IMG/VR virus record: IMGVR_UViG_3300044825_003843
Span: 1 to 64,000 of that record
DNA: 64,000 nucleotides
Source of the DNA: a virus
Lineage: Duplodnaviria; Heunggongvirae; Uroviricota; Caudoviricetes
Reading direction: 5' to 3' (one strand)
Part shown: positions 26-42,818 of the stretch, piece by piece
Layout: each line of letters starts with the position of its first letter
Position numbering within the stretch: position 1 is the first letter of the stretch
Position numbers and translations under genes: made by a program
The notes under the pieces: model-generated
The model's database searches: none
Told to the model about the DNA's origin: nothing
Seen by the model: only the letters and a program-made list of their open reading frames with translations

Positions 26-343
26 TTATAACTTATTTAATATCCATGAAACTCTTCCCCACAGATTTTGTTGTCCTTCGTATCTTCTAATCTTGAAACA
101 AACCTTATCTGTCAACACAACAAGGTCTCCCTCCACAGGGTCAATAGATTTGTCTATGACAAGAATATTCCCTTTCTTTACACCGAGGGAATCGGGACCC
201 ATATACCTAAAATAAAATGTGGTATGAACGTTTTCGATAATCAGTTCATTAAGGTCTAACCTCTTGTCTACATACGACTCCGCAGGTGAAGCAAATCCTG
301 TTGTCCTTGACTTGATTTGAAGTTCCTTCTCTGTAGTATACAT
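26..343 (-). CDS. umuD: UmuD-like S24 peptidase (LexA C-terminal domain family)
   Basis: FASPAESYVDKRLDLNELIIENVHTTFYFRYMGPDSL closely parallels E. coli UmuD [36 protein letters not shown]; Ser (GPDSL) and Lys (FKIRR) of the catalytic dyad present. Confidence 0.75.
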   Translation of the reverse strand: MYTTEKELQIKSRTTGFASPAESYVDKRLDLNELIIENVHTTFYFRYMGPDSLGVKKGNILVIDKSIDPVEGDLVVLTDKVCFKIRRYEGQQNLWGRVSWILNKL

Positions 344-425
344 GATACAAATATAATAAAAAATTGTGACGATAAAAAGATATTGAACTGTTAGACAACC
401 AAAACTTTTTTGTTATATTTCCTAA

Positions 426-1202
426 ATGAAGACAATTAGACAATCACTGACTGAAATAGTTAACTTTGATTTTGTTAATGCATCACAAAAAGAAATTGAA
501 AATATACTTCCGACCTTTGGAATGAACAATGAATACATTAGTGAAATACCTCCCATGTTCTCGAAATATATGGGATGGGGCATTAAATTTTGGCAATACC
601 CAAACCAACTTAGTAAATTACTTTGTCATTTGAAAGGAAAGAAAATTAATTCATACTTAGAAATTGGTGTAAGGTATGGTGGTACATTTGTTTTAATAAA
701 CGAATTACTTAAAAGATATAATAACTACGTGGAATCTCATTGTGTCGATGTTATTCCTGCTTCTGAAATATTACACACCTATCAACATGAATTTGCAAGA
801 GATAGGTTTTATTATCACCAAACCCCATCACACAGTTCTACTTTCTTTGATACACTTACTGGTGTTGACCAAATATCTGTCGCCATTACTACAAAAAAAA
901 TTGATTTAGTATTCATCGACGGATGCCACACCTATCCTTGTGTTAAACAAGATTATGTAACCGCACTTATCTTAGGTGCAAAATACATTATCTTTCACGA
1001 CATAAGTAACACTAACTCGGAAAGTACTAGATTGATTTGGAGTGAAGTCAAAAAAAATCACAAGAAGACCTATGAATTTATTGACCAATATGAAGGTATG
1101 GACGCTAATTACTTAGGTATTGGACTTGTAGAAGTTTCACCTGAGGATGCAGTATTTCCGATGTTCGAATCAAATTATCCAGGTGTCGAGTTGTCGTTGT
1201 AA
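426..1202 (+). CDS. class I SAM-dependent methyltransferase, CmcI/cephalosporin-hydroxylase-like (sugar O-methyltransferase family)
   Basis: WQYPNQLSKLL...YLEIGVRYGGTFVL (motif I) and DLVFIDGCH match CmcI-family signature (Q.P.....IIE.G...GGS ... LVFIDSDH). Confidence 0.6.
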   Translation: MKTIRQSLTEIVNFDFVNASQKEIENILPTFGMNNEYISEIPPMFSKYMGWGIKFWQYPNQLSKLLCHLKGKKINSYLEIGVRYGGTFVLINELLKRYNNYVESHCVDVIPASEILHTYQHEFARDRFYYHQTPSHSSTFFDTLTGVDQISVAITTKKIDLVFIDGCHTYPCVKQDYVTALILGAKYIIFHDISNTNSESTRLIWSEVKKNHKKTYEFIDQYEGMDANYLGIGLVEVSPEDAVFPMFESNYPGVELSL

Positions 1203-4864: not shown

Positions 4865-5152
4865 TTAAGAAAAAGAATCATGTCCATTTTTAATAACTGC
4901 TTCCAAAATACCTATGGATTCTTTATCTTTTTTACTTTTATTTGGTTTCGATTTGAGTTCTCTCAGGGTTCTTTGTAAATCGTTCTCAGGTTTTTTTGTA
5001 GGTTTTGGTTTTACTTGAGTGACCTTGTTCGGTTTGACCTGTTTAAGTTTTTGATATGAAAATTCGTCCTCGAATAATATCTTGTAAACTTTAGCAGTGA
5101 TTATTGGGTCTTTGAGAAGGAGTTTGAGTGTAAGGTATTGTAATAGTTTCAT
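4865..5152 (-). CDS. hypothetical lysine-rich protein
   Basis: 95-aa ORF, K/P-rich C-terminal half. Confidence 0.35.
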   Translation of the reverse strand: MKLLQYLTLKLLLKDPIITAKVYKILFEDEFSYQKLKQVKPNKVTQVKPKPTKKPENDLQRTLRELKSKPNKSKKDKESIGILEAVIKNGHDSFS

Positions 5153-5181
5153 ACCACAAATATACTAAATTAAATTCTAAA

Positions 5182-7186: not shown

Positions 7187-8275
7187 CTATTTTATCTTAT
7201 CCACTAATTTTAATGCAGAAGCAATAATTTGGTGCATATCGTAGTAAATATAATTTGCCAATCTACCTCCAAAGAAAATGTTTTTTTCTTTTTTTGATAA
7301 CTCGGAATATTTCTCATAGAGTGAGCTGTTTACTGAGTCTCTTATTGGATAGTATGGTTCATTATATCCTGTGTAGTTTTCTGGGTATTCATAACTCACA
7401 ATTGTACCTTTTTGTTGTTGGAAATCAAACCATTTGTGTTCTACTATTCTTGTGTAAGGGATGTCTTTGTCGGTATAGTTCATAACAGGCACACCTTGAA
7501 AGTTATCGTCCTCCAAATGTTTTTCTTCCCATCTTAAACTTCTGTATTCTAACTTTCCGAATCTGTAGTCGTAAAATCTATCAATTTCTCCTGTGAATAT
7601 TACTTTACTACATAGTGAATTATATTTCTCCCTACTTTCGAAATAATCGACCCCTAATTCAACATCAATCCCATGCAACATTTTTTCAAATATTTGGGTG
7701 TAACCACCTATTGGCATTCCAACGTATTTGTCATCGAAATAACTACTGTTCCATGTAAATCTTACAGGTAATCTTTTTATAATATATGAAGGTAACTCAT
7801 CACAAGACTTGTTCCATTGTTTTTCCGTATATCCCTGTATTAATATTCTATATATGTCTTCCCCAACTAATGATTTTGCTTGTTGTTCTAAATTGACAAT
7901 TTCCCCTTTGTATTTTTGATTTTCAATAACATTTCTCGCATCAATTTCGTTATTAACCCCCCATATTTGATTGAAGGTCCACAAATTGAACGGTAAGGAA
8001 TATATTTTGTCTTTATAGTTAGCTAAAACATTATGTGTATATTGTTTGAATTCCGCGAATTGATTTACATAGTCCCATAGGTATTTTTCATTGGTATGAA
8101 AAATATGAGCCCCATGTTTGTGAACATGAATTCCATTGATGTTTTCAGTATAACAATTACCTCCAATAACATTCCTCTTATCAATCACTAAACATTTATA
8201 TCCTAATTTAGTCAATTCATATGCACAAGTTGTGCCGAAAATTCCCGAACCCACAATAAGGAAATCATACATCAT
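7187..8275 (-). CDS. glf: UDP-galactopyranose mutase
   Basis: N-terminal FAD fold DFLIVGSGIFGTTCAYEL...VIDKRNVIGGNCYTE...GIHVHKHGAHIFHTN and near full-length colinearity with bacterial Glf (YTEKQW, RFTWNSSYFDDKYVGMPIGGYT, YTRIVEHKWF, YYPI). Confidence 0.93.
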   Translation of the reverse strand: MMYDFLIVGSGIFGTTCAYELTKLGYKCLVIDKRNVIGGNCYTENINGIHVHKHGAHIFHTNEKYLWDYVNQFAEFKQYTHNVLANYKDKIYSLPFNLWTFNQIWGVNNEIDARNVIENQKYKGEIVNLEQQAKSLVGEDIYRILIQGYTEKQWNKSCDELPSYIIKRLPVRFTWNSSYFDDKYVGMPIGGYTQIFEKMLHGIDVELGVDYFESREKYNSLCSKVIFTGEIDRFYDYRFGKLEYRSLRWEEKHLEDDNFQGVPVMNYTDKDIPYTRIVEHKWFDFQQQKGTIVSYEYPENYTGYNEPYYPIRDSVNSSLYEKYSELSKKEKNIFFGGRLANYIYYDMHQIIASALKLVDKIK

Positions 8276-9438
8276 GAAAAACTAAAAGAAAAACTGTTTA
8301 AATTTATAGTCGGTCTTGATAATTTATTTGTATATGTTTCTTTTAAGGTATTTAACAAGGTACCAGTATTGTGATAAATTCTATCGTCAATCAAAAAACA
8401 AAGATTCGGGTATGGGTTCGGTCTATCAACAGAAGCCATAAATTCTACTAAGTTTAACGCTTCTTGATATCTACCTTGAGCGTCCAAAATTTCTACTTTG
8501 TGGAACAGGTGTTCATTTCTATTAGGACAAAAATCTTCAGCAAAATCAAAATATTTGAATGTTTTGTCTTTTTCACCCATGAATTCATATGCTTGTGCCA
8601 TCAAGATTAGTGCAAAATACGCCATTTCATTATTTGATGTTGCAATTGGGTTTTCAGGTGTCCATCCGTGAACTAACTCCAAATACCTTTCGAAATACCA
8701 TATACCCCTCCTCGCATACTCGTCCGAGTGTTGCTTACCAAAAGCTAATTCATCAGGTCTACCATAACAGTCAGTATAACTTTTTGCAATATACCATAAA
8801 TGATATAAATCATGTTTAACTTTATCACCAACAATGTTATCAATTTCCAATTCTAAAGCATCTCTCAGAAACTTTCTTGGAACGTGCCAAGTTTGCCCAT
8901 CTTGAGAAACCCTGTGTCTAAATGATTGAGGTAAAGTTACTCTTTGGAAGTTTTCACCAATATTGGGTAAATGAATAGTTTCATGTCTTTTATCTAATTG
9001 GAAAAACCAAGGTAATTTAGCGTTCCACATCCATGTTCTCATGTATCTTGTACCTCCATTCACAGCATTAACATTCCAACTCTCTACTTTGGTATCATCT
9101 AATATACTCCAATCAAAATCGTTATCAATCTCTAAAGTTTCGTCCGCATCCATTCTCAAAATCCAGTCACAACCATGGTCAGTTTGTAATGCAACTTGTA
9201 AAGTATGATTCCTATTCCAGCCAGGAAAGTTCCATTCAATAAAATAAGTAAACCCTTTGATTCCTTTTTGTTTAAAAAAGGTGTCAATTATTTCTCTCGT
9301 GTTGTCTCCTTTACCATTACATTGTATTACATAATAATCGATATATGGTGCCACAGACTCCAACATTCTTGTTATTGTCGGGGCTTCATCACCGACCATC
9401 GCATTCAAACAAATTTTAGTTTTTTTATTCATATACAT
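8272..9438 (-). CDS. glycosyltransferase (GT-A/GT2-like N-terminal domain) with C-terminal TPR-like region
   Basis: ICLNAMVGDEAPTITRMLESV...YYVIQCNGKGDNTREII and RMDADE (DxD-like); helical repeat C-terminus. Confidence 0.5.
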   Translation of the reverse strand: MYMNKKTKICLNAMVGDEAPTITRMLESVAPYIDYYVIQCNGKGDNTREIIDTFFKQKGIKGFTYFIEWNFPGWNRNHTLQVALQTDHGCDWILRMDADETLEIDNDFDWSILDDTKVESWNVNAVNGGTRYMRTWMWNAKLPWFFQLDKRHETIHLPNIGENFQRVTLPQSFRHRVSQDGQTWHVPRKFLRDALELEIDNIVGDKVKHDLYHLWYIAKSYTDCYGRPDELAFGKQHSDEYARRGIWYFERYLELVHGWTPENPIATSNNEMAYFALILMAQAYEFMGEKDKTFKYFDFAEDFCPNRNEHLFHKVEILDAQGRYQEALNLVEFMASVDRPNPYPNLCFLIDDRIYHNTGTLLNTLKETYTNKLSRPTINLNSFSFSFS

Positions 9439-10672
9439 AATTCATTTTTTGTTCTTCATCATAAAACTTTCTTATGGAAACACTATTTTGAAATTTTTGA
9501 GAGTGTCCTTCTTCTTCTATCCAATTCCAATCAAAAAATCCTAAGTAATTAATTCTTTCATGAATTGCTAAATCATAGTAATCTCTTATTAATCTTGCTC
9601 TTCGATTGATATCCTGAGCGTTGTTGTCTGTTGTAGTGTCTCTACTACTATATTGAAAATATAAAACTTTTTTCACATGTATCATCCTTGTATTCAAAAA
9701 AGTCCTGATGAGTATTTCCAAATCATCTGCTACAGGTGTATTTTTATTGTGTCCTCCGATTTCATGATACAGATTTCTTTCCCACATTCTTACGTGGTTG
9801 GGCATACTAATGTTGAATCTTATAGACAAAGGGTTGATATCAGGATATCTGTGTGCTAATATTTCATTTCCATCAACAGTTTCCCATTCATGTCCAGCAT
9901 AACCAAAATCGAAAAAGTTATCATGTCTTGCATACCAATTACCTGTCCAATCGTGGTCATAATATTTAAACTCACCTGTTTCATAGAACTCACAACAATC
10001 TGAATATAAAAATCCCGCGTCAGGAAATCGTAGAATAGCATCGTCTGCAACCGCCAAACAATTTGTGGTAAGACAATCGTCATGGTCAAGTTCTATTAAC
10101 CAATCACCATCACACAACATTGCCGCTCTATGTTTTGCCAAACCAACATTCCCACCCGTTATTGGATTTAGTTTGTATATTTTAACACGGTAATCTAACG
10201 ACTCTATGTCTTTTAGAATTTTGAAGGTTTCTTCGTTTGGTGAGTCATCAACAACAACCCATTGCCAATTCTTAAGTGTTTGATTTTTTAAACTTTCATA
10301 CGTTCTATAAATTCTTTCACCCGTATTATACGTGGGGGTAAAAATTGAGAACCTTGGTCTTATAACCTCACAGGATTTAAACACGGTTTGACAAACAATA
10401 TCATTAGCCAAAACACTATCAGGTAATTGTTGTTGATAGTATCTATAAATCCTAAGTAATCTGTAATTGTTTATTGGAATATCCTGACCAAACGAGATAA
10501 TTAAGTCAGGTTTATACTTTGTGAAATCAAGTTCCATGTTACCATCATAAGTAAGTGAATAAACTTCAACACTTTCATGTAACCCTTCCTCCCAATATAC
10601 ATCAGAAGTCAATGTGTGGTGACCAATTCGGTCCCAACCATATACAATAGCCGTAGGTTTTTTTGTTTTCAT
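9425..10672 (-). CDS. family 2 glycosyltransferase
   Basis: FSIFTPTYNTGERIYRTYESLKNQTLKNWQWVVVDDSPNE ... IELDHDD (GT2 DxD motifs). Confidence 0.7.
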   Translation of the reverse strand: MKTKKPTAIVYGWDRIGHHTLTSDVYWEEGLHESVEVYSLTYDGNMELDFTKYKPDLIISFGQDIPINNYRLLRIYRYYQQQLPDSVLANDIVCQTVFKSCEVIRPRFSIFTPTYNTGERIYRTYESLKNQTLKNWQWVVVDDSPNEETFKILKDIESLDYRVKIYKLNPITGGNVGLAKHRAAMLCDGDWLIELDHDDCLTTNCLAVADDAILRFPDAGFLYSDCCEFYETGEFKYYDHDWTGNWYARHDNFFDFGYAGHEWETVDGNEILAHRYPDINPLSIRFNISMPNHVRMWERNLYHEIGGHNKNTPVADDLEILIRTFLNTRMIHVKKVLYFQYSSRDTTTDNNAQDINRRARLIRDYYDLAIHERINYLGFFDWNWIEEEGHSQKFQNSVSIRKFYDEEQKMNYVYE

Positions 10673-10709
10673 GGATTAAATTTAAAGAAAAAAAAGATAC
10701 CTGTAAAGT

Positions 10710-11042
10710 CTAATCACCATCATCATTCCAAGATGTTAATATGAATTCTAAATTTATGTAATTGATTTGATTATACTTGTTTTTTGTTACGGATGCCTTC
10801 ATTCCTCCTGTTGCGGTGAAGAATGACTCCCAAGGTCTCAAAGTTTTACTTTCGAGCGCCCCTTTAATCGCATTATCAATCAAATATCTAGCATTACTTT
10901 TCAAATCGTCAACATTTGGAACTCCCCGACCAGGAACACCAGCCCATGTCCAATTCAAAAATCTCATAGTTTTTTCTGTTTTTTCCCAATTGAAATGCTC
11001 CATGACGGTTTCAATCATGTCCTCGAGTTTCTTTCGTTTCAT
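10710..11042 (-). CDS. hypothetical protein
   Basis: 110-aa ORF. Confidence 0.4.
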   Translation of the reverse strand: MKRKKLEDMIETVMEHFNWEKTEKTMRFLNWTWAGVPGRGVPNVDDLKSNARYLIDNAIKGALESKTLRPWESFFTATGGMKASVTKNKYNQINYINLEFILTSWNDDGD

Positions 11043-11061
11043 ATTTTTTTGTTTAAAGGAA

Positions 11062-11079
11062 AACTCCCCGAAGGGAGTT
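11062..11079 (-). terminator. putative rho-independent terminator hairpin
   Basis: aactccccgaagggagtt stem-loop immediately downstream of the 11084..11824 gene, followed on minus strand by T-rich tract. Confidence 0.4.
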
Positions 11080-11083
11080 CTAA

Positions 11084-11824
11084 TTAACTTACCGCATCTA
11101 ACGCCATGGACATATCACCATCCCACTTAATGATTTTGGACTTCGGAACCCAAAACTCCATCTCTCCAATCTCTTCTACTCTTTTCAAATATTCCTCTCT
11201 AAATCTGTTCGCTTGGGACTTGTCTGTGATATACTCAACTCCCATGTGACCAGCACAAATCTTACCCATACGAGTCAACATTGAGAACTCATCAGTCAAA
11301 GTTTTAGCACAACACATACAAACGTCCCCTCTTTTAACTGTCATCTTTCCTGAGAACTTAACCGCCTTCGGAGAAATTGCCAATATCTTAGTGATATCAA
11401 GAAGGATTGGATTGAACTTCAAACCATACTTCTCTTTCAATCCCTGACCCACAGTTCTTCCCACTTTGATGGTTTCACCTGGTGTCGGCCACTTGACATG
11501 GATAGTTTCGTTTTTGTCTTTCTCTTTCTGAATTGTTTTGGTTGCTGCTTCAACCTGCTTGTTAGTGAGTGTCCCGTAAGTAATCAACTTTTTCTTGATG
11601 TCAGCTACAAACGCACTTGGACCATTGTAATCAGCAATAATTTTGAGTTCTTCAGGTAACTCCTGAACGTTCACTTTAACTTCTGAATTCAAACACTTCT
11701 CAACCGCGGCTTCTTGTGCGGGAGTCAAACCTCCGTAACGTGAAATTGTTTCTTTCATTTTCATAACAAAACTGTTTGAACCTTGATAGTTTCTTACTTT
11801 GCTAACGGTGTTAATTGTTGTCAT
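11084..11824 (-). CDS. hypothetical protein (possible virion protein), preceded by conserved promoter motif
   Basis: 246-aa ORF with internal YGxLTxxQ repeats; conserved upstream motif 11836..11857. Confidence 0.5.
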   Translation of the reverse strand: MTTINTVSKVRNYQGSNSFVMKMKETISRYGGLTPAQEAAVEKCLNSEVKVNVQELPEELKIIADYNGPSAFVADIKKKLITYGTLTNKQVEAATKTIQKEKDKNETIHVKWPTPGETIKVGRTVGQGLKEKYGLKFNPILLDITKILAISPKAVKFSGKMTVKRGDVCMCCAKTLTDEFSMLTRMGKICAGHMGVEYITDKSQANRFREEYLKRVEEIGEMEFWVPKSKIIKWDGDMSMALDAVS

Positions 11825-11835
11825 ATAGTGGTGAT

Positions 11836-11857
11836 TTGTGAATACAAAGATACGACC
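11836..11857 (-). promoter_or_regulatory. conserved upstream element, Bacteroidetes-type promoter (TAnnTTTG) plus palindrome TTTGTATTCACAAA
   Basis: minus-strand reading GTCGTATCTTTGTATTCACAAA about 15-35 nt upstream of ATG; identical 22-mer at 12487..12508 and related copy at 44536..44554. Confidence 0.55.
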
Positions 11858-12002
11858 TTTTTCTCATTCCGCCAAATAAAAAATCCCTCAATTTGAGGGA
11901 CCTTTTTTCCTAAATTTTCCAGCAAAATTGTCAAAAACTATGATACAAACAAGAATCAGTGGTACACTGAAAAGATACAACAAAATCGAAATCTTGAAGA
12001 TA

Positions 12003-12476
12003 TTAATTATTTCTAAAAGCATAATCAGCCCAAGTTTTAGCGTTTACAAGTTCCCACAATTTCATGTCACACATATCAGGGAAAGAAGTTCTCATATCAC
12101 CTACGGTCAAAACTTTCAGGAAACCCAAATCTATACTATACCATTTACCCCCTTTGGTTGTTAGAACATTAAACCAAAGAACCTTACCGTTATCGTAGGT
12201 GTGTTTAACTTGAATATTTACGAGACCGTTTTTGGACCAAGGAGAAATAACGTCCTTGGGAGTTCCTGTTATATCAGTAATATTGACAAATCCCGCTTTA
12301 CATTTAGCCGCCACACGGAACTCATACTGTTTATTGTCATCCTTGAGATGGTTAGAAACCATAACTGAGGTTCTCTTACCTTTGATTGTGGTATCGAAAG
12401 AACCGTAAAAAACATCTCCTGACATTACTGGGTCTGTACTAACTTTAACTGCGGGGGTGGTAGTGATTGTGTTCAT
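12003..12476 (-). CDS. hypothetical protein (beta-rich, possible structural)
   Basis: 157-aa ORF preceded by same conserved upstream motif. Confidence 0.45.
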   Translation of the reverse strand: MNTITTTPAVKVSTDPVMSGDVFYGSFDTTIKGKRTSVMVSNHLKDDNKQYEFRVAAKCKAGFVNITDITGTPKDVISPWSKNGLVNIQVKHTYDNGKVLWFNVLTTKGGKWYSIDLGFLKVLTVGDMRTSFPDMCDMKLWELVNAKTWADYAFRNN

Positions 12477-12486
12477 ATGTTGTTTT

Positions 12487-12508
12487 TTGTGAATACAAAG
12501 ATACGACT
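12487..12508 (-). promoter_or_regulatory. second copy of conserved promoter-like element
   Basis: tttgtgaatacaaagatacgac identical to copy at 11836..11857. Confidence 0.55.
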
Positions 12509-12614
12509 TTCTATATTGTCAGCCAAAACTTTTTTTTGTATTGATTTTCAGTTAGTTATGTTTTCTACTGAGGGGAAAACTGTAGATTTTTAGTCAATTG
12601 TTGTATTTATTGGA

Positions 12615-13529
12615 ATGAGTAATAGGTTAAAAAAACTTGCAAGTATTATTAGTGATGAATTCAGTGATAATTTAACAAAAATCTACGGTTCAGTTTTGAC
12701 TTTTCAGTCAGAAAATCCTGATTATTTTGTACCAACTTTTACCGCCAATGATACAATTAAATTGGTATATTATATCTATTCTCTCAAAAAAACTGATGGT
12801 TTTGACTTTGCTGAAAAAATTATCCCTGAGTTACATCTTGCACAATTTTTTGATTATAATAAAGTAAGTGTACATCAGGAAAATTGTGATAATTGTGATG
12901 GTGATGGAAATGAGACATGTCAATATTGTGATGGAAATGGGCAGATAAGTTGTGACAGTTGTGAGGGCGAAGGTGAAGTAGATTGTAATATGTGCGATGG
13001 AGAGGGTAGAACAGAATGTAGTGAATGCGATGGTGAAGGTGATATCGATGGAGAAACATGTGATAATTGTAGTGGGAACGGTGAAGTTGAGTGTGATACT
13101 TGTGGAGGTGGTGGTAAAAAAACTTGTAATAGTTGTGGTGGTGATGGGTATGAAAGTTGTGATGAATGTAGTGGCAACGGGTCAATAAATTGTGATTACT
13201 GCGATAATGATGGTCAAATAGATACTGAAGATTTCGATTATATAATACATGAATATCTGATATTTGACGATGACCTTATAGATGGTCTTTACAGGGATTG
13301 GCAAAATAACACACCCTTAGGTCATACCCTCGAGTTCAAGGGAAGACCAACAGTTCTCTTAATCAATAGTAGATGGGAATATGGTCAATTCGACCCATCA
13401 GTTAAAGAGTATGAAAAATATTGTTTCAACATATCCCCATTCAATTCAACAAGACTATTCTACAAAAGAAAAGGTGTATCAGTTGAAGGAATTAGTGCAA
13501 ATGACGAACCAGATACTTTATTGATTTAA
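12615..13529 (+). CDS. protein with about 14 tandem DnaJ-type CxxCxGxG zinc-finger repeats
   Basis: CDNCDGDGNETCQYCDGNGQISCDSCEGEGEVDCNMCDGEGRTECSECDGEGD...; N- and C-terminal flanks paralogous to 14205..15050. Confidence 0.65.
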   Translation: MSNRLKKLASIISDEFSDNLTKIYGSVLTFQSENPDYFVPTFTANDTIKLVYYIYSLKKTDGFDFAEKIIPELHLAQFFDYNKVSVHQENCDNCDGDGNETCQYCDGNGQISCDSCEGEGEVDCNMCDGEGRTECSECDGEGDIDGETCDNCSGNGEVECDTCGGGGKKTCNSCGGDGYESCDECSGNGSINCDYCDNDGQIDTEDFDYIIHEYLIFDDDLIDGLYRDWQNNTPLGHTLEFKGRPTVLLINSRWEYGQFDPSVKEYEKYCFNISPFNSTRLFYKRKGVSVEGISANDEPDTLLI

Positions 13530-13793
13530 ATTATCAATCCAATCCTGTAAAGGTTGATGGTCACCATTGTAAAGTTCCCTTCTCAAATCATGTTGAATAT
13601 GTTGTTCTTCTGTTGGAGTTTGTCCGTTTGTCAGAAGTTCTGTGTGTCTTTGACCTTGAATAAATTGTATGATATTTTGATAACATCGAGCAGAATAAAC
13701 GAAGTTCTCACACTCAAAAACAACATATTTTGTAAACTCTTCAGGTGAAATCAGAGTTCTTATAAAAGTAAATCCAGTAGTTTCGTAACTCAT
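13518..13793 (-). CDS. hypothetical protein
   Basis: 91-aa ORF. Confidence 0.35.
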   Translation of the reverse strand: MSYETTGFTFIRTLISPEEFTKYVVFECENFVYSARCYQNIIQFIQGQRHTELLTNGQTPTEEQHIQHDLRRELYNGDHQPLQDWIDNLNQ

Positions 13794-13798
13794 AGTTT

Positions 13799-14140
13799 TT
13801 ATTTATAATTACACACGTTTGATTGAAAACAACCCTGTCCCGCACCTTCAACATAACCGACTCTTGTATCAATATGAGTATAGGTTTTGTAAGGTGACAC
13901 TTTACCACAGACAACACATTTATCATATCCGTTTTCTACATAAGAATCTTTTTTTGGTAAATGTATTCCCTTGACCAATCCGTCTTCATCAGCAATAATC
14001 ATAAACTTTTCGTCATCATATTCACGGATAGATTCCTCTTCTTTTTCTTCCCAATACATTTTTCTTACTTTTTCACCCAATTCTGCATCGTTAGGTGTAT
14101 TCAAAATTTCGTTTTCAGACAAATTAATAGTTATTGACAT
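13799..14140 (-). CDS. hypothetical protein with putative zinc ribbon
   Basis: CVVCGKV...GQGCFQSNVC. Confidence 0.4.
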   Translation of the reverse strand: MSITINLSENEILNTPNDAELGEKVRKMYWEEKEEESIREYDDEKFMIIADEDGLVKGIHLPKKDSYVENGYDKCVVCGKVSPYKTYTHIDTRVGYVEGAGQGCFQSNVCNYK

Positions 14141-14204
14141 ATAATTTAGTTTTTTGAAAACATAATCAAACTAATTCAATTTTCCAAAGCTATTTATAGT
14201 TTGA

Positions 14205-15050
14205 ATGAAAAATACAATCAAGAAAATTTGTTTAACATTGTTAGAGGATTGTCCTGAATCCCTCAATGGAATTTATTTGGAAGTGAAAAAACAACTTAAA
14301 TCACAACCTAATTATTTCTCGAGATTTTCTACTGCTGAAAAGTTTGAAATCGTTTACGGTATTTTTTCTCTCAAACAAACAGGACGTTTTGATTTGGCTG
14401 AACAAATTTTACCAAATATCAAGTTAGTTTCAATCTTCAATTTTTTATCAGATGATTTTGCAGAAATCGATTGTCCAAAGTGTGAAGGAGGTGAAAACCG
14501 ATGCAAGGAATGTAACATGTTCGGTGTAGTCAAATGTGATGATTGTGATGGTGAGGGTAGCCAATTTTGTTACAAATGCTATGGGACAGGTGAATACGGA
14601 AATGCCGATTGTGATAATTGCAGAGGAACTGGTCAAATTAGATGTAAGGTGTGTAATGGAGATTCAATGTTAACTTGTCCTGAATGTGGTGGTGACAAAG
14701 TTTTAACCTGTAACGAATGTGGTGGACAAGGAATGTTAGAATCTGAACAAGTGAACTTTAACCTATACGATTATATAATTTACGATAAAAATATATTACG
14801 ATATCTGTTCGATAGAGCCGAGTTGTTCAAACCTATCGGAGAAAATTCGAGCTTTTCTGATTCAATATCTTCGAATGAGAATATACTTCATTTAGGGTTA
14901 AGGTTTGATACCTTTGAACCAAAATCATTTGTTCAAGAAAAAGATTATTGTTATTTCATAGGTTCTATTAACGACGAAGAAAAAATAAATTGGAATATTT
15001 CTCCATCACCAATAGTCTCGACATTACCTCACAAGTATGTAAAAAAATAA
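14205..15050 (+). CDS. paralogous CxxCxGxG zinc-finger repeat protein
   Basis: DCPKCEGGENRCKECNMFGVVKCDDCDGEGSQFCYKCYGTGEYGNADCDNCRGTGQIRCKVCNGDSMLTCPECGGDKVLTCNECGGQG; shares flanking domains with 12615..13529. Confidence 0.65.
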   Translation: MKNTIKKICLTLLEDCPESLNGIYLEVKKQLKSQPNYFSRFSTAEKFEIVYGIFSLKQTGRFDLAEQILPNIKLVSIFNFLSDDFAEIDCPKCEGGENRCKECNMFGVVKCDDCDGEGSQFCYKCYGTGEYGNADCDNCRGTGQIRCKVCNGDSMLTCPECGGDKVLTCNECGGQGMLESEQVNFNLYDYIIYDKNILRYLFDRAELFKPIGENSSFSDSISSNENILHLGLRFDTFEPKSFVQEKDYCYFIGSINDEEKINWNISPSPIVSTLPHKYVKK

Positions 15051-15052
15051 AA

Positions 15053-15072
15053 AGAGAGACCGTAGTCTCTCT
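15053..15072. terminator. bidirectional terminator hairpin between convergent genes
   Basis: agagagaccgtagtctctct perfect 8-bp stem, A-run upstream and T-rich downstream. Confidence 0.5.
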
Positions 15073-15116
15073 TTATTGGGACTGCCCGATAAGGGACAAT
15101 CGCTCCACCACCAAGT

Positions 15117-15395
15117 TTAACTTGGAAAAATCAACTCGTTTATGATTCTTTCTGTCTCTTGAGCAGATACCCAAGCCATCACATCATCTTTTAGGTCAGG
15201 AAAATATTTCTTGGTTACAAATTCTTTTGTCTGTTTGTCTATGAGAGCAATTTCAAAATCATTCTCGAAATCACCATATAAACCTGGTCTACCACCTACA
15301 ATAGAAATCATAAATGAGTCTGACTCGATTATTGTTTGTTTTGCATCATCGGGTCTTGTCGTTGCGAGAGATACTACGTCTTGAATCGTTATCAT
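15117..15395 (-). CDS. hypothetical protein
   Basis: 92-aa ORF. Confidence 0.4.
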   Translation of the reverse strand: MITIQDVVSLATTRPDDAKQTIIESDSFMISIVGGRPGLYGDFENDFEIALIDKQTKEFVTKKYFPDLKDDVMAWVSAQETERIINELIFPS

Positions 15396-15401
15396 ATGTT
15401 A

Positions 15402-15686
15402 TTATTTTGAGACTGGTGACTCTATTTTAGATTTATTGATAAGTTGGTCAGTCAATGTTAAATAGTGTGTTTTAGTGGTTATTACGGACTCCACAAGGGT
15501 CTTGTAGGGAACGTGAATCAAGAAGTCTACCCCATTGAAAAAAGTAAGGTCTTCTTTCATGGTCAAACAACCTTGAATCATCTTCAAAAAAAGTTTGAAC
15601 TGAGATGGATTGACAAAATCTTCATCAACCAAAGTGCCGTAGGTTTCATTGATAACCCTGATGTTGTAGTGACTCATTGTATTCAT
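15402..15686 (-). CDS. hypothetical protein
   Basis: 94-aa ORF. Confidence 0.4.
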   Translation of the reverse strand: MNTMSHYNIRVINETYGTLVDEDFVNPSQFKLFLKMIQGCLTMKEDLTFFNGVDFLIHVPYKTLVESVITTKTHYLTLTDQLINKSKIESPVSK

Positions 15687-15722
15687 ATTACAAAGATATG
15701 GAAAAAAACATTACCAAAAAAA

Positions 15723-16268
15723 TTATTCTTGAGTGTTTTGTATAATTGGGGTGAAATTTTTACCCGAATCACTCATTATTCTGAAAGTTTGTATTTCTCC
15801 CAAATCGGGGAAACTTACCTGTTCTACAGTAATTCCCCACTTCTCCACCTGTTCGTTAATCTCAGGTGTTACCACACTACTCAAATCATACAAATCAGCC
15901 CATTTACAACCTTCAACTATATCACGAATAATTCCCTGTGTTGTATCAACCAAGACATCATTAGCATGCATTACTCCTAACAAAAACTTTCTAACGTCGT
16001 GAATATGGTATCGAACAATACTTGTGAGAACGACACTTTTCTCATCTTCAGAAGTCACAGTTTGGGGTGATAAGTTTACAGTCTGAGTTATTACAGGAGT
16101 TGTGATTATTTGGTCAAAGAAAGGAATTTTCCAATTCAAACCCGGTTCCACAACCTTTATGAATTTACCTACTCTGAGATGAACACCCATTTCCCATTGG
16201 TCAACAATTTTGAAGGGTAAAAAATCTCCAATAAAAGTTACGATTAAATCGATGAGTTTGTCAAACAT
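15723..16268 (-). CDS. SPFH/band-7 domain protein (stomatin/HflC-like)
   Basis: IVDQWEMGVHLRVGKFIKVVEPGLNWKIPFFDQI...KSVVLTSIVRYHIHDVRKF...WGITVEQVSFPDL fits SPFH core. Confidence 0.65.
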   Translation of the reverse strand: MFDKLIDLIVTFIGDFLPFKIVDQWEMGVHLRVGKFIKVVEPGLNWKIPFFDQIITTPVITQTVNLSPQTVTSEDEKSVVLTSIVRYHIHDVRKFLLGVMHANDVLVDTTQGIIRDIVEGCKWADLYDLSSVVTPEINEQVEKWGITVEQVSFPDLGEIQTFRIMSDSGKNFTPIIQNTQE

Positions 16269-20772: not shown

Positions 20773-20806
20773 AATAAAAAACCCCATTTGTAGAAACAAA
20801 AGGGGT
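20773..20806 (-). terminator. putative terminator (minus strand)
   Basis: minus-strand CCCCTTTTG-loop-CAAATGGGG followed by TTTTTTTATTT. Confidence 0.45.
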
Positions 20807-20829
20807 CAATTAGTTAAAAAAACTTTGAG

Positions 20830-21780
20830 AATACAAGTTCTATTTGAGAATCTTTAGAAGGATTATGGTTTCCCTCCGTTTCCACTTCCTTTTGAGAAGT
20901 AATCCTCAGTGACGATTAATTAGGTTAATCAAACCTTGAGTTGTCAGATACTCTCTTGATACTTGCTACTCCTCGATGATGCCTCACCAATACTTCCTTG
21001 CGAGAATAGAGAACTTTTTCAAAAATCGTGTCGGGTTTGGGACCCTTCACGGCCGTGAACTTCTCACGACTATGTAGTCACCTTTCACTGACAACTGACG
21101 GACACTTTTCCGTTTGTAATTATTATTGTTAATAACATTTAACAAATGAATTGGTTTGTGGATTTGGAAAGTAGCGGTCCGTCAACCTGCTTCCCCATCT
21201 TTTGAACGAGGAAATACTGAACTACTCTCTGAGACATCCCTGCCTCCATACTTCAAGTTTACTTCATAACTCATGCCTTGGTAGGCTAAGGTTAAGGAGA
21301 ACAACAGCACCACCTGTACGAACTCATACCTTTCGGTTTTAAGTCAACTCTGATATTGAATCACGCAATTGTATAGTTGGATGACCATACTTCTTGCAGG
21401 AGTTCTACGGGTTATTCTTATCGGTGTTCCCACCTCAACCAAACGACCCACATCGCTTGGTCATCATTCCATTTCGCCTACAGTGTCACCCTCAGCTACT
21501 CAGGGACAATGATATCCCGCTTGTCTACTCAAGCTCAACAGAGGACACCCCTATCGAGCCGCAACCTACTTCAACCGAGGTAGGTCACTTTATACTGCTT
21601 TCACAGTTTATTTTATGGACTATAGACCGCCCAATATCTTGAATCAAAGAACTATCAAGTTTGAAGGAAAAAGGTATTTTTACGACCTGAAACCTTTCAG
21701 GAACCTTTACAACCCGTTTCCTTCAATTGTTCTACAAAACTAAGAAGGGTTTTTGATACTTCCAAATTTTATTAGAACTT
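20830..21780 (-). ncRNA. candidate large structured non-coding RNA (ORF-free, GC-elevated block downstream of tRNA); strand uncertain
   Basis: about 1 kb with stops in all six frames, markedly higher GC than flanks, many local helices (e.g. TTCACGGCCGTGAA at 21046..21059); no known ncRNA family recognised by eye. Confidence 0.3.
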
Positions 21781-21788
21781 TTTTTTGT

Positions 21789-21860
21789 TGCGTGAGTAAG
21801 AATCGAACTTACGACCTAAAGGTTATGAGCCTTCCGAGCTACCGCTGCTCTATCACGCGA
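21789..21860 (-). tRNA. tRNA-Met (anticodon CAT), initiator-like
   Basis: 72-nt cloverleaf CGCGTGA-TA-GAGC-AGCGGTA-GCTC-G-GAAGG-CTCATAA-CCTTT-AGGTC-GTAAG-TTCGATT-CTTAC-TCACGCA-A; C1:A72 mismatch and A11:U24 typical of bacterial initiator tRNA. Confidence 0.8.
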
Positions 21861-22166
21861 TGTTAAGTTAAATTCTACCCATTCCCCGTCGTCACCATCC
21901 AAGTCATGCTCTGGTTGTACATGGGTAGAATCAATATATTAAAGAACTTTATTCGATTAAAAAGTCCCACAAATCTACGATACTTTTCTCAAACTACCAA
22001 ATTCGTGGGACTAAGGGGGGAGAGATGTTTGACCATCTCATTTGTTTCACAAAGTTAAGAAGAATTTCTCAATTCGTCAAATTTTTTCTTGTGAAACTTT
22101 TTTTGTGGGGTGTTCACCTTTTTACAGGTGTGGATATATAAATATCACATTAATTTGTAAAGTCAA

Positions 22167-28990: not shown

Positions 28991-29171
28991 ATATTCTATT
29001 TTTGATTTCTTCCGTAGTTATACCGCTTTTGAATAATTCAAAAACTTTGGAGCTGACATCGTCCATAAAAATAAGTGATTCGGATGAATAAAGCACAGAA
29101 AGTTCATCTGAATTCAGATAAGATTTGGTTACTTGTTCAGTAATAATTCGTCTGTGAAAGCCCATAAACAA
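28968..29171 (-). CDS. hypothetical protein
   Basis: 67-aa ORF. Confidence 0.3.
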   Translation of the reverse strand: MFMGFHRRIITEQVTKSYLNSDELSVLYSSESLIFMDDVSSKVFELFKSGITTEEIKNRIYEDNHGN

Positions 29172-29182
29172 AATTAATGAAT

Positions 29183-32033: not shown

Positions 32034-33068
32034 ATGTCAACTTGGAAAGATTATATTGAAGAATTCAACTCAGGAGATACAGACTTTTTAGGAAACTTTG
32101 GAGATGATATTGGTCTGTTCGTAGATTTAATAACTCAGAAAGGATTACTTAAATACTTGAACGTTAATGCAAGTATGGAACCTGAAGTTGAGAATAAAGT
32201 TGTGTTGGCCTTTTATGAACATCACATGCCAAGTTATATAGAATTTTTACAAGAGAATTTGAGTGATGTAGAATTTGAAAATGGAGTGTTTTATTTTGTC
32301 GGTGACCCTTCAGATTTATCTACTCTTTTTGATGAAGGTAGAAATACCTTGCAGAAAAAAACTGTAGAAAAAATTTTGAGTGGTGAAGGTTTAGACTTTG
32401 AATTTTTTGACTACACAACAGACAACGTTTATTCCGACGTTGTTGAAGAATTGAATATTGTAAATTTGCAATCCTTATATGAAGCCGTTCTTTACTTTTC
32501 CAAAGACGTTCAAATAGAACCAAGTACAGAACTTTTAGAATTGATTGCTGAAGAACAAGGTCACCCTGATTTTGTAATCATAGACAAAAACAATGTTGAA
32601 AGAATTGTCGATGACAGAGAAACTTTCGAATCACTTCTTAATGATGAATTATCTGATTTGAAGGGTAATCTCATAAACCTTCATCATTGGGCTTACAATT
32701 CAGCATATGAAGAAGAAGTTTACGAGGAAGTTTGGAATCAGCTTGATAAGTTTTTTGTCACTGACCAAAAGAAATGGGTTTCAGTACCAATGTATACAGG
32801 ACCTGCTGGTTCACAAAAGATTGCAAGTACTATAGAAAGAATGAAATTACCAATAAGAAATTTACCCGAAATAATAAATGATTATCTAAGATGGAATGTG
32901 GAAGCTACATATCCAGAATCAGTTAGGTATTATGGTAACTACTCAGCAATATTGACATGGGTTCTCGACGAAAACCGTGATTATTCAAAGGTATATCCCC
33001 CTGATTTTCCTGATAGTTCTAAAGTTGATAAAAACATCAACGAAATGTTCAACGATTATATATACTAA
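32034..33068 (+). CDS. hypothetical acidic protein
   Basis: 344-aa ORF, only long plus-strand gene near the fibre module. Confidence 0.5.
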
Positions 33069-35152
33069 CCATTAAGTTTGTCTTCTATCTTTTTTAACTT
33101 ATCCTCTACCTGAGTCAATAATCTATATTGTTCTTTAATTGCTTGAGTGCAAATTGCAACAATCTCAGAGTATTTTACTTTATATCCATTTTTTTCGTCA
33201 CCATATACAACCTGTGGTAAAACCTCTTGAAGTTCTTGTGCAATGAAACCTATATCATCATCGTCTTTCTTGTGAATATGATATTTTTCTGGGTTCTTCC
33301 ACTTAAATCTAACACCCCTCAATTTTTGGATTATACTAACAGCATCCTCTATTACTTTGATATTTTTCTTCATCCTTGAATCAGACGGTGGTCCGATTGC
33401 ACCTGTTCTACCTGTCTGTCCAATATTACCTTGAGCACCTTGAGCTCCTTGTGGACCAGGTCCTCCACTTTGTCCTTGAGCTCCTTGGGCACCTGTTGCT
33501 CCTTGTGCACCTTGAGGACCCGCGGGATTACCCGCAAGGTTATTACCTTGGTCACCAAAATTTCCTTGAGCACCCTGAGTACCTGGTGGGCCAGGAGTTG
33601 GTTGACCTTGAGCACCTTGAAATCCTTGACCACCAACAGGTCCTTGAGCACCTTGAGCACCGGGGGGACCTGTATTCCCTTGTGGTCCAGGTGCTCCTAT
33701 AGGACCTGGTGCACCTGGCGGACTAAGTCCTGGTGCTCCTTGAGCCCCTTGAGCACCTTTCGAACCCTGACTTCCTGCGACTCCAGGAGTTCCTTGTGCA
33801 CCTTGTGGTCCTTGTGGTCCGAGAGCTCCAGGATTACCTGTAGGTCCTTGAGCACCTTGTGCTCCTTGCCCTCCTTGAGCTCCTTGAGGTCCCTGAGCTC
33901 CTTGAGCTCCCTGAGCACCCTGAGCACCCTGAGGTCCTAAAGCACCTTGTGCACCTTGACCACCCCGTGGGCCTTGAGGACCCGCAGTCAAAGATTGAGC
34001 TCCTTGAGCACCTTGACCTCCTTGAGCACCAACAGCTCCTTGTGCTCCCTGCGCTCCCTGAGCTCCCTGTCCTCCTTGAGCACCTTGAGCGCCTTGACCT
34101 CCTTGAGCACCTTGACCTCCTTGAGCACCTTGGCCTCCTTGAGCACCTTGACCTCCTTGAGGACCAACAGCTCCCTGCGCTCCTTGTATTCCTTGAGCAC
34201 CTTGACCACCTTGAGCTCCTTGAGCACCTTGACCTCCTTGAGCACCTTGTATTCCTTGAGCACCTTGACCTCCTTGAGCGCCTTGAGCACCTTGACCTCC
34301 TTGAGCACCTTGAGCACCTTGACCTCCCTGAGCACCTTGAGCACCCTGTCCTCCTTGAGCACCCTGTCCTCCTTGAGCACCCTGTCCTCCCTGTGCTCCA
34401 ATGTTTGCCCCTGGGGCACCTGTATTTCCTTGAGCACCTTGAGCTCCTTGAGCACCTTGAGCTCCTGTTGCTCCTTGAGCACCTTGAGCACCCTGTCCTC
34501 CTTGAGCACCCTGTCCTCCTTGGGCACCTTGTCCTCCTTGGGCACCAACGTTACCCACAGCACCCTGAGCACCTTGACCTCCCTGAGCACCTTGAGCACC
34601 CTGTCCTCCTTGAGCACCCTGTCCTCCTTGAGCACCCTGTCCTCCTTGAGCACCCTGTCCTCCTTGAGCACCTTGAGCTCCTGTTGCTCCTTGAGCACCT
34701 TGTCCTCCTTGAGCACCTTGTCCTCCTTGAGCACCAACGTTACCCGCAACACCCTGAGCACCTTGACCTCCCTGAGCACCTTGAGCACCTTGTGCACCTT
34801 GAGCACCTTGACCTCCCTGAGCACCTTGAGCACCTTGTGCTCCTTGGGGCCCTTGTGTACCTGAAGAACCTTTTGCACCTTGAGCTCCTTGGGGTCCTTG
34901 TGGTTGTCTGTTACCCTGCCATGCCGTCGTATTAATCAAAGTTCCAGCATCATTAATAAGAGTATTGGTTAATCGTAAATCTGCATTTGTAACTCTGAAA
35001 TTAGGATAAGTATTATCCAAGGACAGATAAGTAGTAACCCCTCTTCTAAATTGTAAACTAGCTGAGGTTACAACCAAATCAGTTTGGGTCGTTGCAGAGT
35101 CATAAAAGGAAATCGTCCCCGTACCAGGCGTTATCTTAATATCTTCAGGCAA
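33065..35152 (-). CDS. collagen-like triple-helix repeat tail fibre protein with C-terminal intramolecular chaperone (peptidase S74-like) domain
   Basis: about 480 aa of G-X-Y repeats ([10 protein letters not shown]...) and C-terminal [32 protein letters not shown] (SDxRxK self-cleavage motif). Confidence 0.85.
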
Positions 35153-38100
35153 TCAATTTTGTTTTTAAATATTTTATTTTTTCATAAATAGAATTTATCC
35201 TTTTTTGTTGTTCTTGAATTGAACCGATACAAAGAGCAACAATTAAACCATATTCCAATCTTTTATATCCATCGTCCTCCGTCCACACAACTTGTGGTAA
35301 TACCATTTCTACCTCCTGAGCAATATATCCAACAGAATCTTTTTCATAATAGTGTTCTTGAGCTGGGTTGAGATAGTTTTGAACTTTATCATTTTTTTCA
35401 TCCCAAGTAAAGTAAACACTTTGAAGTTTCAAAATTGTATCAATACTGTTTTTCAAAGTCTGAACTTTTGACTTCAATCTTCTATCTGAAGTAGGTCCAG
35501 TTGGTCCTTGCGGTCCTTGAGAACCTTGAACCCCTTGAGCACCTTGAGCTCCCTGTGGTCCCTGTGGACCAGCACCTGCAGTTGCAGGTGCACCAACACT
35601 ACCTTGAGCTCCTTGTGCACCTTGAGCCCCTTGCGGGGCACTTAACCCTTGGGTTCCTTGAGCACCTTGAGCACCCTGAGGTCCTCGAGGTCCAGTTGGA
35701 GAGGCACCCTGAGCACCTTGTGCACCCTGAACCGTACCTTGCGGTCCAGCAGCTCCCGAGTTACCTGTCACACCTTGAGCTCCTTGTGGACCTTGTGGAC
35801 CTTGGGCACCTTGAACACCTTGAACACCTTGTGGTCCCTGAGCACCTTGCCCACCTTGGGCACCTTGGGCACCTTGGGCACCTTGTGTAGTATTTGTAGT
35901 TCCTGGTGCGCCAGGATTACCGACCACAGCACTTGCACTTCCTTGGGCTCCTTGAGGTCCTTTCGCACCTTGCGCTCCTGTGTTAGCACCTGACGCACCT
36001 GTGTTACCTGTCCCTCCAGGGACACCTTGAGCTCCGGTCGCACCCACGGGTCCTTGAAGTCCTTGAGCTCCTTGGTTTCCTTGGAATCCTTGTGGTCCTT
36101 GTGGTCCAGGTGCTCCAGGCGTTGTGTTGGCAGCACCTTGAGCACCTTGTCCTCCTTGCGCCCCTTGAGCACCCTGAGCACCTGTATTTGCACCCTGAGC
36201 TCCTTGAGCACCTGTCGCTCCTTGCACCCCTTGAGCACCCTGAGCACCTGTATTTGCACCCTGAGCTCCTTGAGCACCTTGAGCTCCTTGTTGTCCAACT
36301 GCGCCGGTATTTAGACCCTGAGCTCCCTGAGCGCCTGTTGCTCCTTGTATCCCTAATGCACCCTGAGCACCTGTATTTGCCCCTTGAGCACCTTGTGCAC
36401 CTTGTCCTCCCTGAGCACCTTGTGCACCTTGTCCACCCTGAGCTCCTGTATTCGCACCTTGAGCACCTTGTGCACCTTGTGCACCTTGTGCACCTTGTAC
36501 ACCTTGTGCACCTGTATTTACACCTTGAGCTCCTTGAGCCCCTGTTGCTCCTTGAGCTCCTTGTCCACCCTGAGCACCTGTATTTGCCCCTTGAGCACCT
36601 TGTGCACCTTGTCCTCCCTGAGCGCCTTGTGCTCCCTGAGCACCTGTATTTGCTCCCTGAGCTCCCTGAGCACCTTGTCCTCCCTGAGTGCCTTGTGCTC
36701 CCTGAGCACCTGTATTTGCTCCCTGAGCACCTTGAGCTCCTTGAGCACCTTGAGCTCCTTGAGCACCTTGAGCTCCTGTGTTTGCTCCCTGAGCACCTTG
36801 AGCTCCCTGAGCACCTTGTCCTCCCTGAGCACCTTGAGCACCTGTATTTGCTCCCTGAGCACCTTGTCCTCCCTGAGCACCTTGTCCTCCCTGAGCACCT
36901 TGAGCTCCTGTGTTTGCTCCCTGAGCACCTTGTGCTCCTTGCACACCAATACTTCCTTGAGCACCTTGGGCTCCCTGCACACCAATACTTCCTTGAGCAC
37001 CTTGAGGTCCTTGTGACCCCTGAGCACCTTGAGCTCCTTGTCCTCCTTGGAACCCAATAATATTTGTTGTTGGTCCTACCCAAATGGCAGAACTATTAAC
37101 AAATAAAGTATTTCCAACATACAATCCACCTGAATTTAGGCTAGCCCCTGATGATAATATATTTTGTGGCCCTATTTGAAATCCCGTGGAAACTGTTGAA
37201 GATGAGAGTTGTAAAAACAAATTTTCAACATTCAACTGTAACTTGTTTGTACCATCATCGAATATGATGAATGGTTTCAGAACTGAAGCATTACCTTGAG
37301 GATATATTATTATATTAGCCATTTATTTTACTTTCTAATTCTTTTACTTCGATAAGAAGTTTTTCTATTTCTCTTTGATGCTCTTTTATCGCTTCAACCA
37401 CAACCGCGTTCAATTTGGTGTATTCCACGTAATAATATCCAGACTTATTGACACCAACGGCCTCAGGGAAATATTTCTTAAGGTCTTGGGCTATCAATCC
37501 GATAGACTGTAGTTTACCTACCTGAGAAAGATAATCATATTTGTTAGGGTCTATTTTATCATTCCATTCAAATTGAATTACTTTCAGTTTATTAATACTC
37601 TCTAACACATTTTCAAGGTTAGATACTTTCTTTTTCAATCTTTTATCTGAGAAACCTGGTGGACCTGGGAAACCAGGGTCCCCTTTAGCACCTTGAGCCC
37701 CTTGAGCACCCGTATTTCCTGTCGGTCCTCCACTTGCAGGACCTTGAGCTCCTTGTGCACCTTGAGCTCCGGTGTCCCCTTGAGCACCAAATTTTGCACC
37801 TGTAGCACCTTGAGCACCTTGTGCACCTTGAAACCCTGTTGGTCCTTGAGGTCCGAGAGTTCCTGGAGCACCTTGAGCCCCATTGGGTCCGAATGCACCT
37901 GGTCCTCCTTGAAAACCTATATTGCCTGGCGCACCTGGCCTTCCGACGAATCCTTGTGCTCCTTGTAGTCCTTGTATTCCTGTAGCACCTTGAGCCCCTT
38001 GAGCACCTTGACCTCCTTGGGCCCCTTGAGCACCTGTAGGACCATTAGGTCCAGGTGGACCTTGGACTCCTTGTGCTCCTGCAGCTCCCTGAGCACCTTG

Positions 38101-39130: not shown

Positions 39131-39447
39131 CCTGGCGCACCTTGAGCCCCTTGTCCTCCCGCAATATTTGTGGTTGGTCCGACCCAATTCAAAGTATTAT
39201 TTAATATCTGTATTCCACCAACACTCATGAAATTTCTAATATTCAAAGTGTATCCTGAAATATTAGTGTTCGAAGGATTAACTGATAATATATTACTTTG
39301 AGTTGCAGAACTAAAAGTCACTACAGCACCCGATAAAACTTTCAATGAAATGGGTACATCACCGACATTATTTATAAAGTCGATAAAAGGAATTCTGTCA
39401 GGTTGTTGAACCAACCGACTCGGAACTATTTTAATGTTTAGACCCAT
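37315..39447 (-). CDS. collagen-like tail fibre protein with C-terminal S74-like chaperone domain (paralog 3)
   Basis: [16 protein letters not shown] repeats; C-terminal [30 protein letters not shown]. Confidence 0.85.
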
Positions 39448-42775: not shown

Positions 42776-42818
42776 TTTACAAATATAACAACTTTTCGGG
42801 AATCGATAAAGTTTTTAA

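Follow-up and report, generated by a model that had tools for sequence, protein, structure and literature searches.

A predicted Bacteroidota-type -33/-7 promoter cassette precedes two adjacent genes of an uncultured large-phage family

A 22-nucleotide (nt) element, GTCGTATCTTTGTATTCACAAA, that occurs twice in a 64,000-nt stretch of viral DNA (the whole of the stretch analysed, hereafter the window) is probably the core of a strong promoter read by a Bacteroidota-type host housekeeping holoenzyme of the sigma-ABfr class. The promoter would consist of a -33 TTTG(G), a spacer of 19-20 nt, the -7 box TATCTTTG and a favoured region for initiation, TATTCACAAA. The predicted first nucleotide of the transcript is the C or A of CACAAA, 4-5 nt past the -7 box, and the resulting leader of about 14-15 nt would be A/C-rich, unstructured and free of a Shine-Dalgarno motif. 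This cassette appears to head two adjacent single-gene units, each followed by a putative intrinsic terminator, and a weaker internal version that comprises only the -7 box would lie ahead of a gene for a 465-aa protein. The sequence architecture, its conservation among orthologous loci, its recurrence ahead of many unrelated genes and stable RNA genes and the host-type signals are observed directly; the start site, recognition by the host sigma-A, high strength and early or constitutive timing are inferred.

Results

Architecture of the two full copies

The two copies of the 22-mer were located by an exact search of the 64-kb window (Table 1). They end 10 nt and 9 nt upstream of the ATG codons at 11824 and 12476, respectively, and span positions of about -31 to -10. 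The original prediction had described two identical 22-mers at these genes, and both are indeed exact copies; its coordinates, however, were one base too high, and the distance of 15-35 nt from the gene starts that it gave is not that observed. No further match with three or fewer mismatches is present in the window, and none was obtained in 100 shuffles. The likeness of the two copies exceeds the 22-mer and extends from TTTGGC at -33, which both have, through to the ATG, and the TTTG within TTTGGC lies exactly 20 nt 5' of TATCTTTG in each case. By sequence architecture, both would thereby constitute a complete Bacteroidota -33/-7 promoter. With the family promoter profile, the two copies score 35.0 and 34.5 bits, a site at 15691 scores 24.1 bits and the rest of the window remains below 11 bits; these three are the only sites above 20 bits in 64 kb. 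A sigma-70-type promoter was also considered and was rejected, as scan matches are at background level (10 vs 6.6 expected).

Table 1 Features of the promoter copies and the genes that they precede.
Feature	Position	Strand	Basis or remark
22-mer copy 1: GTCG, -7 box TATCTTTG and TATTCACAAA	11835..11856	-	exact match
-7 element TATCTTTG, putative promoter of gene 11084..11824	11845..11852	-	invariant in 57 unique orthologous upstream regions
-33 element TTTG (in TTTGGC), 20-nt spacer to -7 box	11873..11876	-	position conserved in orthologs
Predicted transcription start (C or A), 4-5 nt past -7 box; leader ~15 nt, no Shine-Dalgarno motif	11839..11840	-	from the F. johnsoniae 4-5 nt rule
22-mer copy 2	12486..12507	-	exact match
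-7 element TATCTTTG, putative promoter of gene 12003..12476	12496..12503	-	25/35 unique ortholog regions have TATCTTTG
-33 element TTTG (TTTGGC), 20-nt spacer, copy 2	12524..12527	-	33/35 unique ortholog regions have -33 TTTG
Predicted transcription start, copy 2; leader ~14 nt	12490..12491	-	as for copy 1
Variant copy TATTTTTGTATTCACAAA, 18 nt	44535..44552	-	22 nt before ATG at 44512
-7 box TATTTTTG of variant copy	44545..44552	-	TAnnTTTG type
Third-best profile match TATCTTTGTAAT, ATG directly after; leaderless-type start of 94-aa gene 15402..15686	15691..15698	-	family profile
Gene, conserved 246-aa protein: two helical repeats, small beta-barrel, Cys-rich DUF6011-like motif	11084..11824	-	
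Gene, conserved 157-aa protein	12003..12476	-	
Gene, 465-aa protein, weak LRR match, downstream of variant copy	43115..44512	-	
Hairpin and T-rich tail (GAACUCCCUUCGGGGAGUUUUCCUUU), likely terminator of 246-aa gene	about 11053..11080	-	-12.4 kcal/mol, z = -2.0
Intrinsic terminator (GGUCCCUCAAAUUGAGGGAUUUUUU) between 157-aa and 246-aa genes	11878..11902	-	reads as terminator on both strands

In F. johnsoniae, the -7 box of promoters is T-12 A-11 .. T-8 T-7 T-6 G-5 (TAHHTTTG), and 4-5 nt separate it from the start (Baez et al. 2019, PMC6847099). Comparison with this host promoter consensus, which had been proposed together with a reading of TATCTTTG and TATTTTTG as TAnnTTTG -7 elements, agrees with that reading: both boxes are of the Bacteroidota type, and TATCTTTG matches TAHHTTTG exactly.

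The two full copies form part of a regular arrangement, in the order promoter, 157-aa gene, terminator, promoter, 246-aa gene, terminator. The 246-aa protein, in which the helical repeats are N-terminal, is highly conserved and has 1943 homologues in metagenomes; no informative fold match was found for it. A blastn search with positions 9000..16000 and a tblastn search with the 246-aa protein detected no similarity to isolated phages, so the host is not given by any cultured relative. The number of metagenomic homologues, together with relatives on contigs of up to 322 kb, indicates that the window comes from a big family of uncultured large phages. Its GC content is about 32%, and 79 of its 94 ORF calls lie on the minus strand. 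Besides tRNA-Met and a GOLLD RNA, it encodes three tandem collagen-like tail-fibre genes, SbcCD, an exonuclease and several DNA methyltransferases. The tail-fibre genes (33065..39447, minus strand) are paralogues of ~700 aa that match collagen-like tail fibres with E values as low as 1e-105 and have a GC content of about 46-51%, compared with about 32% elsewhere. A glycan-modification cluster is located at 426..1202 (plus strand) and 7187..10672 (minus strand). It includes a UDP-galactopyranose mutase (7187..8275; phrog_9677, E 6e-136; about 55% identity to glf of Streptococcus suis phages) and two family-2 glycosyltransferases, plus a methyltransferase further upstream.

The variant copy and other promoter-like sites

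A shorter variant had been predicted upstream of the gene for the 465-aa protein. Such a copy exists, at 44535..44552 and not at 44536..44554, and is found directly 3' of the TAG stop codon of a Dam-like methyltransferase gene (44554..45393). TTTG is absent at a spacing of 19-20 nt from its -7 box, the -33 position falling in the end of the Dam methyltransferase gene, and its score with the family promoter profile is <9 bits. At this third site in seven relatives, TATTTTTG is kept in five but the TATTCACAAA part is not: the sequence downstream of the box reads TATTCTCAAT, CATTATCAAT, CTGAAACAAT and similar, and conservation is limited to the -7 box and a CA(A) some 6-8 nt further on, with no -33 TTTG at canonical spacing. 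The third copy, which is without a -33 element, may be weak or inactive.

The third-best profile match lies at the start of a 94-aa gene (Table 1), the orthologs of which in two relatives (L011 and L107) have the full TATCTTTGTATTCACAAA cassette and a 21-nt leader. Five genes of the window start 3-4 nt past a TAnnTTTG box (341..355, 5150..5164, 15684..15698, 42773..42787 and 29166..29176, all on the minus strand; for example TATATTTGTATCATG), and the pattern of TAnnTTTG, N4 and start occurs seven times vs 1.6 expected. If the 4-5 nt rule for the distance from box to start is applied to these five genes, the first transcribed base would be the A of the ATG and the mRNAs would be leaderless.

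Two more -33/-7 promoter-like sites are observed upstream of tRNA-Met (21962..22081, minus strand). One of them, TAGATTTG (21970..21977), lies in the loop, 31 nt long, of an inverted repeat with 8-bp arms, AGTCCCAC...GTGGGACT, and TTTT after it. The GOLLD RNA (Rfam RF02032, 316.5 bits) is the next feature downstream of tRNA-Met (21788..21859); it occupies 20822..21229 on the minus strand and probably reaches about 21729. A putative Bacteroidota-type promoter of its own, TTTGG-N20-TAGTTTTG, precedes it at 21735..21766, and a hairpin with a T tract follows it at about 20775..20810. GOLLD also adjoins tRNAs in the relatives L045 and L014. The GOLLD RNA is thereby placed in a putative Bacteroidota phage.

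Conservation at orthologous loci

About 140 IMG/VR loci, on contigs of up to 322 kb, were compared; many of these related sequences are orthologous, and the counts are therefore not independent. Among orthologs of the 246-aa gene, 78 loci extend far enough upstream, and each of them has TAnnTTTG 19-27 nt before the ATG, although the proteins are no more than 51-70% identical. Across the 57 unique upstream regions of this gene, TTTTG at -33 and TATCTTTGTA are near-invariant, and the spacer and the leader drift. For the 157-aa gene, the box is present in 58 of 65 loci, and the 35 unique upstream regions contain the -33 TTTG at a spacing of 19-20 nt in 33 cases, TATCTTTG in 25 and TATTCACAAA in 20. 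The box is decayed (TATCTTTA) at two loci of this gene and is wholly absent from the most distant orthologs (47-52% identity). Three loci with distant orthologs (L333-L335) have no TAnnTTTG and have in common a TTGACC upstream of the gene, the spacing of which to a -10-like box is ambiguous. This TTGACC may reflect a different host promoter type.

The likeness of the two promoters of one genome could also have arisen by concerted evolution. This explanation was rejected, as the likeness within genomes equals that between orthologous promoters of different genomes: in the 13 genomes with both genes, the values are 0.63 within vs 0.57-0.62 between for the downstream part and 0.48 vs 0.48-0.50 for the upstream part. 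Thus, 18 of the 22 identical bases would be consensus bases of the family that selection maintains at either site, and the extra GTCG common to both window copies appears to be particular to this genome and not a rule of the family.

Recurrence of the cassette and of its start-region decamer

The decamer TATTCACAAA is not obligatory, as promoters of 246-aa orthologs have TACTCACAAAAC, TAAAACAAATAC, TGAAACAAAAC, TAAGGTAATCAATAAAAC, TATAAATCAAAAC or TTTAAATAAAAAAC in its place. The exact 18-mer TATCTTTGTATTCACAAA nevertheless occurs in 103 IMG/VR stretches, compared with 15 and 8 for two control 18-mers with an identical -7 box and a downstream part of equal base composition. A -33 TTTG accompanies 49 of the 105 unique IMG/VR matches to TAnnTTTGTATTCACAAA. 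An ORF start comes next in 37 of these 49 (mostly 10-13 nt on) and tRNA genes in six; the remaining six are mostly cut by the end of the locus. The ORFs that follow the cassette in relatives belong to about 20 different families. In one locus (L086), the tRNA starts 4 nt past the motif. In three others (L112, L119 and L063), a G-rich hairpin (for example GGGGGTGTAGG...CCTACACCCCC) is observed after TAnnTTTGTATTCACAAA, ahead of long arrays with as many as about 30 tRNAs in a locus. The three genes of the window had been proposed as a possible co-regulated phage regulon. What remains of this proposal is the common promoter type: the third copy has no -33 element and its TATTCACAAA is not conserved, and the presence of the cassette before about 20 other gene families and tRNA arrays argues for a promoter class rather than a specific three-gene regulon.

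The same 18-mer is found in cellular genomes. When one genome per bacterial or archaeal species was searched, 34 of the 63 exact matches were in Bacteroidota, and 18 of these 34 are located just 5' of an ORF start, vs 2 of 29 outside this phylum. In two MAGs, one of Parabacteroides (L215) and one of Tannerellaceae (L256), the tmRNA gene starts 4 nt after the end of the exact 18-mer. The mature 5' ends of both tmRNA and tRNA, 4 nt past the 18-mer, are compatible with a start inside CACAAA. Because the same sequence precedes tRNA and tmRNA genes, its role would be exerted at the level of transcription and not as a translation signal. The simplest reading of TATTCACAAA is a favoured start-site or initially transcribed region, with a C/A start and then a run of A residues, joined to a consensus -7 box. 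A bolder reading, which we consider unlikely, is that TATTCACAAA(AC) is a distinct start-proximal element of Bacteroidota polymerase promoters, of an initiator, discriminator or promoter-escape type, that is new to description. If this were true, TATTCACAAA(AC) would mark the strongest promoters, namely those of tmRNA genes in the host and of tRNA arrays and highly expressed genes in the phages, and its near-dyad with the -7 box might be functional, for example as a sequence read by a phage or host factor.

The palindrome and alternative explanations

The sequence TTTGT-ATTC-ACAAA is a genuine 5+5 inverted repeat, and the original prediction had suggested that it could be an operator. The 14-bp dyad TTTGTATTCACAAA, from -7 to about +5, would then be bound by a dimeric phage or host regulator that switches the genes together. 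In agreement with this idea, the dyad is at a classic repressor position, 42% of the promoter-like sites of the family (127 in all) retain TTTGT-N3/4-ACAAA, the decamer is 7-13 times as frequent as controls of matched composition and TTTGTNNNNACAAA is over-represented in the window (four occurrences vs 0.55 expected). Three of these four occurrences, however, are the 22-mer and variant sites, and the fourth, which is the sole window dyad apart from a promoter, is located in the hairpin stem that follows the GOLLD RNA. As the left arm coincides with the invariant -7 box, the symmetry is inseparable from the promoter, and the two half-sites and their spacing are not conserved independently of it. 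A T follows TTTG in 90% of the 127 family sites. Of these 127 sites, 53 have the right arm ACAAA, separated from TTTGT by 4 nt (37 sites) or 3 nt (16 sites), and 54 keep TTTGT but lack the right arm (about 40-43% of the 127, including many orthologs of the same gene). Furthermore, the arms are no longer than 5 bp, the same 18-mer stands before host tmRNA genes and a Pfam scan of roughly 20 neighbouring ORFs detected no HTH-type or other DNA-binding family. An operator superimposed on the promoter is thus improbable. The palindrome is most likely a by-product of promoter box and transcription start, and not a repressor site, because the invariant -7 TTTG(T) happens to complement the (A)CAAA of the start region.

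The palindrome was also evaluated as an RNA hairpin. Its centroid energy of -1.1 to -1.3 kcal/mol (z of -0.4 and +0.3) is no better than that of shuffles, and a structured RNA leader or attenuator hairpin was rejected on this ground; its left arm, moreover, is 5' of the predicted start and would not be part of the transcript.

Conservation outside the host consensus raises a different question. The C at position 4 of the -7 box (-9), the TA after the box (-4/-3) and CACAAA are all strongly conserved beyond TAHHTTTG, and an additional factor could read them. In the extreme case, TATCTTTGTATTCACAAA would belong to a phage-specific class that is read by a phage sigma-like factor or a phage-modified RNA polymerase and that marks middle or late genes. 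Factors of this kind could be supplied by the phages themselves, which are very large (contigs of up to 322 kb), and the rarity of sites above 20 bits in the window would fit such a class. Against this, the -33 TTTG is conserved with canonical spacing, which fits recognition by the host holoenzyme, an identical 18-mer precedes tmRNA in Bacteroidales genomes and no HTH-type or sigma-like protein was detected in the about 50 of 94 window ORFs scanned, most of which have unknown function. We therefore regard a phage-specific class as very improbable. It is hardly credible that the conserved ACAAAAC... acts in the RNA as a translation enhancer or stability signal, for example one selected by phage-modified ribosomes: an A/C-rich, unstructured leader is favoured for Bacteroidota initiation (PMC6847099) and bS21 is encoded by freshwater Bacteroidetes phages of matching genome size and GC content (PMC9723584), but tRNA arrays and tmRNA preceded by the same sequence are not translated from it, the hairpin is negligible (z about 0) and half of the 22-mer is upstream of the predicted start.

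Discussion

The promoters A1-A3 of T7, N25 of T5 and PL/PR of lambda are near-consensus, strong promoters for the host polymerase that are repeated at several genes and have a defined initially transcribed sequence. The cassette of the window resembles these classical phage promoters in being a near-perfect copy of the host consensus that would recruit the host polymerase, and differs from them in having Bacteroidota -33/-7 elements in place of -35/-10.

The likeness to Bacteroidota housekeeping promoters extends to several features. The -7 box has no G at the two variable positions, TTTG is located 20 nt upstream and the element is co-oriented just 5' of Shine-Dalgarno-free genes with short A-rich leaders, as predicted here. 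There are also differences from F. johnsoniae. The -33 TTTG is near-invariant in the phage family and gives a weak signal in the promoter logo of F. johnsoniae. The -7 box is mostly of a single variant, TATCTTTG, with TATATTTG next, and the start decamer TATTCACAAA is preferred. Finally, the predicted leaders are 14-15 nt long or absent, compared with a host average of 33 nt (PMC6847099). The closest cellular parallel drawn here is with Bacteroidales tmRNA promoters, in which TATCTTTGTATTCACAAA ends 4 nt before the mature RNA, as it likewise does before tRNA arrays in phage relatives. Only one of the two tmRNA loci (L256, Tannerellaceae) has TTTG at 19-20 nt in a strict test, and these loci are cellular genes of gut taxa, whereas the phages are from lakes. 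Taken together, the element appears to be new for this uncultured phage family, but to fall within the known Bacteroidota -33/-7 promoter class. The cassette reveals no new regulatory mechanism.

The original prediction had also proposed the motif as a handle on the host clade. This use of it agrees with the near-absence of Shine-Dalgarno motifs, which are found in 2 of 94 window genes, the upstream regions of the genes being G-poor and A-rich, and with the 18-mer before Bacteroidales tmRNA genes. Promoter type, Shine-Dalgarno scarcity and the use of the 18-mer in Bacteroidota genomes, all read from sequence, point to a Bacteroidota host. A described group of freshwater phages predicted to infect Bacteroidetes has genomes of 293-331 kb, a GC content of 31-33.7% and many tRNAs, and encodes the ribosomal protein bS21, which is proposed to favour phage transcripts; promoters are not discussed in that study (PMC9723584). 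The family described here is alike in contig size and GC content, a link that serves as a lead only. A phage-style cassette, TTTG-N20-TATCTTTGTATTCACAAAACGAAAATATAT..., is also present at the edge of the stored stretch of a Chitinophagaceae MAG contig (L225; CANFHA010000011.1, 189,787 bp). This contig could be a large phage genome placed in the wrong bin, or it could hint at the host.

The promoter model TTTG-N19/20-TATCTTTGTA, with or without TTCACAAA, can be used to annotate transcription units in these genomes, and the compact, putatively strong cassette is suggested for trial in genetic work with Flavobacterium or Bacteroides. The promoter type and the scarcity of Shine-Dalgarno motifs together would provide a pointer, drawn from the DNA itself, to the host of a large uncultured family of freshwater phages whose contigs reach about 320 kb.
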